Below are positions 10,190-11,800 of a stretch of DNA of 64,000 nt, piece by piece (within the stretch, counting starts at the first letter, position 1; each line of letters starts with the position of its first letter). Source of the stretch: Escherichia coli. Lineage in GTDB: Bacteria; Pseudomonadota; Gammaproteobacteria; Enterobacterales; Enterobacteriaceae. Under the pieces are notes generated by a model. It made no database searches and was not told where the DNA came from. It saw only the letters and a list, made by a program, of their open reading frames with translations. The stretch is taken from the NCBI RefSeq assembly GCF_030384885.1, contig NZ_CP128613.1; one strand, written 5' to 3'. The translations under genes were made by a program, and so were the position numbers.

Positions 10190-10921
10190 ATGAAGATGTT
10201 GCGCGATCCGCTGTTCTGGCTCATTGCTCTGTTTGTGGCACTGATTTTCTGGCTGCCTTACAGCCAGCCGCTGTTTTCTGCCTTGTTCCCACAACTGCCA
10301 CGCCCCGTTTATCAGCAAGAAAGTTTTGCTGCTCTGGCACTGGCTCATTTCTGGCTGGTGGGAATTTCGAGTTTGTTTGCGGTGATCATTGGCACAGGTG
10401 CCGGAATTATTGTTACTCGCCCGTGGGGTGCGGAATTTCGCCCACTGGTGGAAACTATTGCCGCCGTTGGGCAGACTTTTCCGCCCGTTGCGGTGCTGGC
10501 GATTGCCGTTCCGGTGATTGGGTTTGGTCTGCAACCGGCGATTATCGCCTTGATCCTGTACGGTGTGCTGCCCGTCCTGCAGGCGACACTTGCCGGGCTG
10601 GGAGCGATTGATGTCAGCGTGACAGAAGTTGCGAAAGGTATGGGAATGAGCCGTGGTCAGCAACTGCGTAAGGTCGAGCTACCGCTGGCGGCTCCGGTGA
10701 TTCTGGCGGGCGTGCGAACTTCGGTGATTATCAACATTGGTACGGCGACGATCGCCTCAACGGTAGGGGCCAGCACGCTGGGTACGCCCATCATCATCGG
10801 GCTTAGCGGATTTAATACCGCGTATGTGATCCAGGGGGCGTTACTGGTGGCACTGGCGGCGATCATCGCAGACCGCCTGTTTGAAAGGCTGGTGCAGGCG
10901 CTTAGCCAGCACGCAAAATAA
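10190..10921 (+). CDS. yehW: Osmoprotectant ABC transporter permease
   Basis: 243 aa multi-TM ORF immediately after yehX. Confidence 0.9.
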
Positions 10922-11009
10922 AGGTATAACCTGCGAGCATGACGCCACCAATTCCGCCTAACGCCATAAAAAGGAACAGGGCGATGACCCCAATTTTAGC
11001 TATGCGCAT
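10902..11009 (-). CDS. yohO: Small membrane protein YohO (35 aa)
   Basis: Minus-strand ATG (cat at 11007-11009) preceded by an AGGAG-like SD; translates to [35 protein letters not shown]; overlaps yehW 3' end by 20 nt convergently. Confidence 0.75.
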
Positions 11010-11068
11010 AATGCACTCCTTATGTTAACGAAAGGATTGTACAGTAAAGCGCATTTGTTAACGAATCA

Positions 11069-11800
11069 TTAAATGCCGAGTGGGAAAATATCATGGCCTT
11101 GTTCCTGCCAACTGGTAAGTTGCTGCTGTTGGGCAGAGGTTCGATTTTCACCGCACCACACCAGCAATGTACGGCCTTCGAACAGTTCTGGGCGTAGTTG
11201 ATTGAGCGAGTGGGCGAGGACATCAATGCGCCATCCTTGTTGACTGGCAATCCAGCCCTCTAGCCACAGACGGGTGGTATCCTGAATATTCCAGCCAACC
11301 ACCAGCGCATCTTTACCCTGTTTTTTACGTGCCGAAGCCAGACAAATGGCGATGTAGTTGATCAGTACGCCGTCGAGGATCGCCAGCAGCGCCTGGAGAG
11401 TCGGTTGTTGGCACTGAAGCCGTCGGCGCAGAGGAATAAACAGGTGCGTGGTGAGTGTCTGGGCGGGGTAATCCTGACCGCGCTCTTTGATCCACGTTCG
11501 CAGGCTATGCAGATTGCCGCTTTGCAGGTAAGTCAGTAATGTTTCTTGCTGATCGCGCCAGCCGTTCTGCACATCAACATTTTCATTACTGAGCAGCATT
11601 TTAACTTTGCTGACCTGCACGCCGTTGTCGATCCAGCGTTTGATCTCGCGGATCCGGTCAATATCGGCATCATTGAACAGCCGATGACCGCCGTCTGTCC
11701 GTTGCGGTTTCAGCAATCCGTAACGCCTCTGCCACGCGCGTAACGTGACAGGGTTAATATCACAAAGCAACGCCACTTCACCAATTGTGTAAAGCGCCAT
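11069..11800 (-). CDS. mlrA: MerR-family transcriptional regulator MlrA
   Basis: 243 aa, N-terminal MerR HTH (YTIGEVALLCDINPVTLRAWQRRYGL). Confidence 0.92.
   Translation of the reverse strand: MALYTIGEVALLCDINPVTLRAWQRRYGLLKPQRTDGGHRLFNDADIDRIREIKRWIDNGVQVSKVKMLLSNENVDVQNGWRDQQETLLTYLQSGNLHSLRTWIKERGQDYPAQTLTTHLFIPLRRRLQCQQPTLQALLAILDGVLINYIAICLASARKKQGKDALVVGWNIQDTTRLWLEGWIASQQGWRIDVLAHSLNQLRPELFEGRTLLVWCGENRTSAQQQQLTSWQEQGHDIFPLGI

Follow-up and report, generated by a model that had tools for sequence, protein, structure and literature searches.

We found that the short open reading frame running into the 3' end of yehW, in the 64,000-nucleotide stretch of Escherichia coli DNA analysed here (contig NZ_CP128613.1; hereafter the window), is yohO, a previously annotated and experimentally detected E. 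coli gene whose translation and whose transcript overlap with yehW were already known. We estimate a probability of about 85% for the joint reading that yohO encodes a known single-pass inner-membrane microprotein, that it is probably repressed by ArcA at low oxygen, that its helix probably packs against other helices and that its overlap with yehW is likely to be ancient.

The yohO coding sequence occupies positions 10902-11009 on the minus strand, with an ATG start, 35 codons and a TAA stop, and a Shine-Dalgarno sequence AAGGAG lies at 11016-11021 on the same strand, 6 nt from the ATG. On the plus strand, yehW (10190..10921, 243 codons) encodes the permease of the OsmF-YehYXW glycine betaine ABC transporter, and the two coding sequences converge and share the 20 nt at 10902-10921. 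A preliminary description of this DNA, made from the sequence alone, had proposed a very hydrophobic 35-codon gene with a good Shine-Dalgarno sequence, overlapping the last 20 nt of yehW, and had named it yohO. We observe that the reading frame, its ribosome-binding site and its hydrophobicity (GRAVY 1.58) are as proposed, and that the overlap is exact to the nucleotide. The name is also right: RefSeq annotates 10902-11009 as 'protein YohO', between yehW and mlrA, the layout is that of MG1655, and the NCBIfam equivalog NF010225 (UPF0387) is matched at 80.1 bits against a cutoff of 57 (E = 8.8e-23), with residues 1-35 aligned to profile positions 1-35. The arrangement had further been called easy to miss, which no longer holds since yohO is now annotated routinely.

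When comparing the locus across E. coli, an 801-nt stretch spanning yohO is matched at 95-100% in 5423 of 5426 complete genomes, and in strain 2013C-4282, whose DNA is 100% identical to the window, yohO is annotated. In MG1655, yohO (b4542) is located at 2215657-2215764, yehW at 2215745-2216476 and the end of mlrA at 2215597. The K-12 gene (b4542, YP_588460.1) is the same gene, with 195 of 196 nt of promoter and coding sequence identical and one synonymous change; it also has the same neighbours, follows mlrA after 59 nt and overlaps yehW by 20 nt, leaving no substantive difference. The position downstream of mlrA and convergent with yehW is the one found in RefSeq, in MG1655 and in most of the best 80 of 159 species loci described below. 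Furthermore, the YohO family is narrow, comprising 17 clusters among 1.84 billion representative proteins, mostly frameshifted or chimeric copies of the E. coli sequence. Pfam holds no YohO family, its B12D match (E = 0.36) being insignificant, and searches of the PDB by sequence and by profile returned nothing significant and no solved structure or complex with YohO; likewise, Rfam and PADLOC searches at yohO gave nothing significant.

Several lines of evidence indicate that YohO is a real protein. Small reading frames are plentiful, and the six frames of the window contain 300 ATG ORFs of 25-60 aa, a number that by itself would leave room for a chance, over-annotated ORF. Among these 300, however, only one has a GRAVY of at least 1.5 and five have a strong Shine-Dalgarno sequence, with yohO alone combining both, and it therefore exceeds chance expectation even without other genomes. 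The preliminary description had named a missing translation signal as the observation that would count against the gene; instead, published work reports Ribo-seq coverage in the annotated frame (10.1101/2020.05.05.079178), membrane localisation (Hemm 2008, as cited in 10.1101/2020.05.05.079178) and detection of YohO by top-down mass spectrometry in a 2025 proteomics study (PMC12529367). A profile scan of one genome per species detected relatives in 159 species, of which the best 80 were analysed, covering Escherichia, Salmonella, Citrobacter, Klebsiella, Raoultella, Kosakonia, Pluralibacter, Leclercia, Trabulsiella, Shimwellia and others, together with Erwinia. All 80 of these best loci carry an intact ATG ORF of 34-37 aa. 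Using the Nei-Gojobori method on codons 2-28, which leaves out the overlap with yehW, we calculated a dN/dS of 0.128 in the yohO frame. Four of the other frames give 1.1-3.4, and the antisense frame whose third codon positions coincide with those of yohO gives 0.29. Comparison of these orthologous sequences thus reveals strong purifying selection on the YohO peptide throughout Enterobacteriaceae and Erwinia, and selection this strong at the level of the peptide marks the protein as the functional product. The conservation excludes a chance ORF, whose probability we regard as practically nil.

Next, we consider the structure of the peptide. AlphaFold2 predicts YohO to be one helix spanning residues 3-33 (pLDDT 92.8), and together with the GRAVY value this describes a protein of fewer than 50 aa with a single hydrophobic transmembrane helix. 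The N-terminus has a net charge of +1 to +2 and the C-terminus one of 0 to +1, which, by the positive-inside rule, weakly favours an N-in orientation. Among the best 80 of the 159 species, residues K5, G19, I20, G22, V23, M24, L25, G27, Y28 and I31 are invariant, and residues 15-33 are almost so, following the pattern MA-[ILV]-[GS]-G-I-[GS]-G-V-M-L-A-G-Y-[ST]-F-I-[VL]-[RH]. Near-total conservation of this segment, and not of one helical face, suggests a helix enclosed on every side. We propose that the glycine-rich invariant half (G18/G19, G21/G22 and A26/G27, with the spacing G18xxxG22xxxA26) would pack tightly on other helices, and that YohO may, by analogy with other small membrane proteins of E. 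coli, either form oligomers or serve a larger membrane protein as an accessory or regulatory subunit. The conservation of the C-terminal half would fit a buried or oligomeric helix, whereas an accessory-subunit role is a further step that conservation alone does not establish. The accessible literature that was searched yielded no partner, phenotype or biochemical activity for YohO.

The small inner-membrane regulatory and accessory proteins of E. coli include AcrZ, MgtS, MgrB, CydX and KdpF. YohO resembles proteins of this type in its length (under 50 residues), its one transmembrane helix, the separate initiation of its small ORF and its condition-specific transcription, represented for yohO by its ArcA-bound promoter. 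It differs from them in having no sequence similarity, and in being conserved over almost the whole C-terminal half of the helix and not along a single face.

Upon comparing the gap between mlrA and yohO across genera, we observed a conserved promoter-like block with the consensus TTAATGgTTCATTAACA-N-GCTT-N-TAtAaT-N-GTTAACAtAAGGAG-N6-ATG. In the window, mlrA (11069..11800, minus strand) ends 59 nt upstream of yohO, and the -10 hexamer of the yohO promoter lies at 11036-11041 on the minus strand, reading TACAAT here and TATAAT in most genera. On the plus strand is the ArcA box ttgttaacgaatcattaa at 11055-11072, with the sequence as published and consisting of the direct repeats DR1 (TGTTAA, 11056-11061) and DR2 (CATTAA, 11067-11072); it overlaps the mlrA stop codon and the putative -35 region of yohO, whose hexamer would be weak (3/6 match). 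A third conserved repeat, TGTTAAC at 11023-11029 on the plus strand, lies 33 bp from DR1, close to the putative transcription start and 5' UTR, and its columns are at least 90% conserved. The elements were counted in the 76 Enterobacteriaceae loci among the best 80 of the 159 species. A -10 of the form TAnAnT is present in 76/76 loci, with exact TATAAT in 48; at least one copy of TTAACA occurs in 75/76 and two copies in 49/76, of which 47 are exactly 33 bp apart; the ArcA box pattern TTAA[TG]-N6-TTAAC is found in 64/76. A Shine-Dalgarno sequence (A/C)AGGAG is present in 74 of the 76 loci, and an SD-like core sits 6 nt before the ATG in 74 as well.

The block is kept in nine Enterobacteriaceae loci that have no upstream mlrA (among the best 80 of 159), and also where 100-530 nt separate mlrA and yohO. 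Judged by this conservation, the promoter-like block belongs to yohO and not to mlrA. RNAalifold, applied to 59 orthologous spacers, detected 0 conserved pairs in the promoter region, and hence the constraint acts on the DNA. Several other candidate elements were rejected. A hairpin that would hide the Shine-Dalgarno sequence in RNA reading through from mlrA looked plausible in E. coli and was dropped on the same RNAalifold result. TTAACA as a -35 element would leave a spacing of 14 nt to the -10, which is too short; a resemblance to an MlrA box half-site (TGTACAA) is confined to Escherichia and coincides with the -10. A promoter-like match at 10984-11012 on the plus strand reaches 9/12, which is within chance expectation, and its second hexamer falls on variable bases before the ATG.

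Read on the plus strand, the conserved repeats give TGTTAA, an ArcA half-site, a match that was noticed before the published ArcA box was found. Park et al. 2013 report an ArcA ChIP-seq/ChIP-chip region named yohO (PMC3798270, Table S1), an ArcA box of 14.2 bits with this sequence (Table S3) and a pair of direct repeats scoring 10.0 and 1.6 bits (Table S4). The third TGTTAAC repeat at 11023-11029 is absent from the yohO repeats in the accessible part of Table S4. Given the published ChIP data and the identical sequence in the window, ArcA binds the yohO promoter block in vivo, at a box of two repeats spaced 11 bp centre to centre.

As for the consequence of binding, phosphorylated ArcA would cover the -35 region and probably also the third repeat at about +1, repressing yohO at low oxygen. 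Two expression data sets bear on this. In the tables of Park et al., yohO has a log2 expression of 7.17 in the wild type and of 7.77 when arcA is deleted, and it falls in a 'lowly expressed' class that the authors set aside (PMC3798270, Table S8); the effect of the deletion amounts to only approximately 0.6 log2 units. In Shigella flexneri, yohO changes by log2 -2.96 in anaerobic relative to aerobic growth, with no effect of fnr (PMC4229854), a result that concerns anaerobiosis and not arcA. These data are suggestive, not decisive, and we infer that ArcA represses yohO at low oxygen, so that YohO would be mainly an aerobic protein. ArcA-repressed promoters with multiple direct repeats, such as icdA, trxC, paaA and phoH (PMC3798270), share with yohO the two repeats 11 bp apart centre to centre, the overlap of the repeats with promoter elements and a further repeat placed at whole helical turns. 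The extra repeat of yohO is, however, 33 bp from DR1 and 44 bp from DR2, beyond the 11 and 22 bp spacings described for ArcA promoters (PMC3798270), and unlike those four genes, ArcA-dependent expression was not called for yohO because of its assignment to the lowly expressed class (PMC3798270).

At the other end of the gene, the yohO transcript extends into yehW. Adams et al. 2021 report a primary yohO 3' end at MG1655 position 2215813, antisense to yehW (PMC7815308, Supplementary file 1), and 'yohO' occurs three times in their curated 3' end table, which covers three growth conditions (PMC7815308). This position corresponds to 10853 in the window, 49 nt past the yohO stop, giving a 3' UTR to the Term-seq end at 10853-10901 (minus strand) that lies wholly antisense to yehW codons. 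A Rho termination region was mapped at MG1655 2215995 (PMC7815308, Supplementary file 2), which is position 10671 on the minus strand of the window, approximately 231 nt past the stop and also antisense to yehW. We found no intrinsic terminator downstream of yohO on its strand. The mapped 3' end lies 5 nt beyond a 7-bp GC-rich stem; the stem is followed by no U tract, its fold is ordinary compared with shuffled sequences (z = -0.39), and the RNA downstream of yohO contains more C than G. The simplest reading is that Rho terminates transcription and that subsequent trimming would produce the yohO 3' end. A terminator-like hairpin at 10992-10977, in the 5' part of the coding region, was rejected as a chance feature: its conservation does not extend beyond Escherichia, and MG1655 lacks the synonymous variant on which its T run depends.

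The overlap between the two coding sequences is itself widespread, being present in 74 of the best 80 loci of the 159 species. It measures 20 nt in the class with 35-aa peptides, 26 nt in a 37-aa class ending in RGGVG and 17 nt at one 34-aa locus. Since both YohO and YehW are two residues longer in the 26-nt class, an in-frame indel of 6 nt within the overlap is the best explanation for the difference between 20 and 26 nt. The C-terminus of YohO is near-invariant (GYTFILRAG or GYSFIVRGGVG), whereas the tail of YehW after FERL is highly variable (for example NRRISRHRREQ), and thus it is the YohO frame that bears the constraint in the overlap, which the YehW tail tolerates. Because the coding sequences overlap, complementary mRNA 3' ends are guaranteed; the complementarity of the mature yohO mRNA to the yehW coding sequence covers at least 69 nt.

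When examining the neighbours of yohO among the best 80 of the 159 species, we find that it is linked to yehW in 76 loci, two degraded yehW copies included, and that 67 loci have mlrA upstream of it in the same orientation, 48 of these with 57-61 nt between the two genes. The exceptions are informative about the retention of the gene. In Escherichia sp. MOD1-EC7003, osmF, yehY, yehX and most of yehW are deleted, which leaves a yehW remnant of 46 codons directly next to bglX, and the yohO gene there is intact; in one Trabulsiella locus, yehW is internally deleted. Four Erwinia loci carry yohO with neither mlrA nor yehW nearby. In the two of these that were inspected, yohO lies 135-195 nt upstream of a gene for a 492-aa MFS transporter on the same strand, and the other neighbours differ. 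From these comparisons, the 20-nt overlap would be an ancient, compact arrangement and probably not what keeps yohO in the genome.

These observations bear on several other roles that could be assigned to the locus. The preliminary description had raised potential transcriptional interference between yohO and the transporter operon, which is consistent with the published excludon listing and with the yohO 3' end inside yehW. In the functional sense, an excludon is a pair of genes with mutually exclusive expression. Under such a regulatory excludon, the arrangement would serve mainly for antagonism between the RNAs: antisense transcription from yohO would lower osmF-yehYXW, by polymerase collision or by RNase III acting on the duplex, and transcription of the operon would in turn lower yohO. 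The 20-nt coding overlap, held in 74 of the best 80 loci, would agree with this, as would the positions of the mRNA 3' end (49 nt) and of the Rho region (about 231 nt) inside yehW and the lack of an intrinsic terminator after yohO. Moreover, ExcludonFinder places yohO-yehW among 165 convergent excludons detected in at least 50% of 58 MG1655 RNA-seq samples (PMC12288877), and the pair shares with these the convergent neighbours and the overlapping transcripts. What distinguishes yohO-yehW from convergent excludons in general is that the coding sequences themselves overlap, making transcript overlap unavoidable and the listing near-automatic once both genes are expressed. Furthermore, we found no data on reciprocal or mutually exclusive expression of the pair in the literature searched, selection on the peptide marks the protein as the functional product, and yohO is intact without yehW in Escherichia sp. 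MOD1-EC7003 and in Erwinia. We therefore regard a regulatory excludon as unlikely; as a secondary effect, it is compatible with the reading of yohO as a microprotein gene. An extension of it, in which ArcA-controlled transcription of yohO would continue antisense into yehW for at least 230 nt until stopped by Rho and would thereby couple oxygen to osmoprotection, tuning the OsmF-YehYXW betaine transporter to the respiratory state, possibly with YohO also acting as a transporter-associated subunit, appears to us distinctly improbable. The pairing of yohO with an MFS transporter gene in Erwinia is the hint on which the subunit part of this extension is based.

That pairing, in which the other neighbours vary, is also what would speak for a role of YohO as the dedicated small subunit, or a modulator, of a transporter (OsmF-YehYXW in Enterobacteriaceae), by comparison with KdpF and Kdp or AcrZ and AcrB, and linkage to yehW in 76 of the best 80 loci points the same way. 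However, this linkage is forced by the overlap itself, and yohO and the operon are encoded on different strands, yohO having a separate ArcA-bound promoter. Its persistence in Escherichia sp. MOD1-EC7003 despite the loss of osmF, yehY, yehX and most of yehW, and in Erwinia without an adjacent yehW, further argues against such a role, for which we found no interaction evidence in the literature searched; we consider it improbable. Membership in an mlrA-yohO operon, with yohO as the distal gene within the MlrA/curli stationary-phase circuit, would agree with the shared strand in 67 of the best 80 loci, with the spacing of 57-61 nt in 48 of them and with our finding no terminator-like site between the two genes. 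Against this, yohO has its own conserved -10 and ArcA box, the promoter block stays with it in the nine loci without upstream mlrA and past insertions of 100-530 nt, and Erwinia carries yohO without mlrA, which makes the operon reading decidedly improbable. All three of these roles (excludon, transporter subunit and operon member) are weakened by the same observation, that yohO keeps its own promoter and survives without yehW or mlrA. Finally, the small size and high hydrophobicity of the peptide, together with the complementary transcript that converges on its gene, are reminiscent of a type I toxin restrained by overlapping antisense RNA. Yet yohO is a single-copy gene, vertically inherited and syntenic across genera, YohO is detected in ordinary cultures, and a yohO overexpression clone was recovered in a growth-based screen (PMC10299036). 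Rfam and PADLOC gave no match, the antisense partner is the mRNA of the transporter gene yehW and not a dedicated sRNA, and the promoter-like match on the opposite strand is at chance level. By these measures the locus does not look like a type I toxin-antitoxin system, and we judge a toxin-like peptide to be extremely improbable.

Overall, the value of these results as discovery is small, since databases or published supplements already contain the gene, its translation, the ArcA site, the mRNA 3' end and the transcript overlap with yehW. What the synthesis adds is that the ArcA box, the -10, the Shine-Dalgarno sequence, the 35-codon ORF and the Rho-terminated 3' end in yehW form one small conserved unit. 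The comparative analysis additionally indicates that conservation across Enterobacteriaceae extends to both the promoter block and the overlap, that within the overlap the YohO frame is constrained and the YehW tail is not, and that yohO outlasts the loss of the transporter operon. These points lead to concrete and cheap experiments on the YohO microprotein.

Among the relatives of yohO, several departures from the E. coli arrangement were observed in the species loci (L-numbers; one genome per species, the best 80 loci out of relatives in 159 species). In Escherichia sp. MOD1-EC7003 (L004 4092-6838), osmF, yehY and yehX have been lost along with most of yehW; a 46-codon yehW remnant adjoins bglX, and both yohO and mlrA are intact. 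In Erwinia, the yohO homolog encodes 34 aa with a C-terminal RS, its upstream region is unlike the others (L029 4001-5716, L081 4001-5776), and a conserved MFS transporter (492 aa, weakly matching the aromatic-acid and sugar-porter families) lies 135-195 nt downstream on the same strand; this neighbourhood description covers L029 and L081 of the four Erwinia loci (L029, L042, L046 and L081).

The locus labelled Chryseobacterium sp. 18061 (L078) shares its YohO peptide, its upstream sequence and the layout of its neighbours with that of Citrobacter sp. 18056 (L076), and the assembly carrying it looks mislabelled or contaminated. The proteins P0002-P0017, retrieved from the 50%-identity representative library, consist mostly of E. 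coli YohO joined to frameshifted or foreign tails. For example, P0012 ends in LSLIHISEPTRPY, which looks like translated sequencing adaptor, and P0017 continues into the antisense strand of yehW. Most of these entries are assembly or gene-calling artefacts and not diversity of the YohO family.

Upstream of yohO, we observed a third conserved TGTTAAC repeat at window 11023-11029 (+), exactly 33 bp from the first direct repeat (DR1, 11056-11061) of the published ArcA box and approximately at the inferred yohO transcription start. This spacing recurs in 47 of the 49 loci with two repeat copies, and the third copy is absent from the repeats given for yohO in the available portion of Table S4 of PMC3798270. 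In seven loci of the Citrobacter freundii complex (L012, L013, L014, L017, L024, L025 and L026), the stretch from the ATTAACA box to the -10 element, roughly 30-40 nt upstream of yohO, has lost 8 nt, which places TTAATA at a spacing of 17 nt and makes it a possible -35 element (4/6 match). From its sequence, the yohO promoter of this complex is predicted to be rewired with the ATTAACA box kept. Insertions of ~50 to 470 nt between mlrA and the promoter block were also found in six loci (L009, L024, L030, L034, L037 and L050), belonging to Citrobacter koseri, C. portucalensis and several Klebsiella species, with mlrA-yohO gaps of 109-529 nt compared to 59 nt in the window.

On the strand antisense to yohO, opposite its start codon, there is a sigma-70-like match (ATGACC-17-CATAAT, window 10984-11012, +; 9/12), which we rejected as a promoter, as such matches occur at chance level (1 found versus 1.4 expected) and its bases are not conserved. 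Within yehW, a row of the genomic SELEX data given as 'yohO > yehW < yehX' reports an intragenic (type D) minor sigma factor peak (PMC5493296), whose U00096.2 (MG1655) coordinate, 2214150, corresponds to about 10.5 kb in the window. Finally, the first 13 codons of mlrA contain a terminator-like hairpin on the minus strand (window 11796-11774, followed by GCGTTGCTTT; whole feature 11762-11796). Term-seq places an ORF-internal 3' end at MG1655 2214904 (PMC7815308), and upon coordinate mapping this position is window 11762, 38 nt into mlrA, coinciding with the hairpin. Transcription of mlrA may terminate prematurely or be attenuated at this hairpin.
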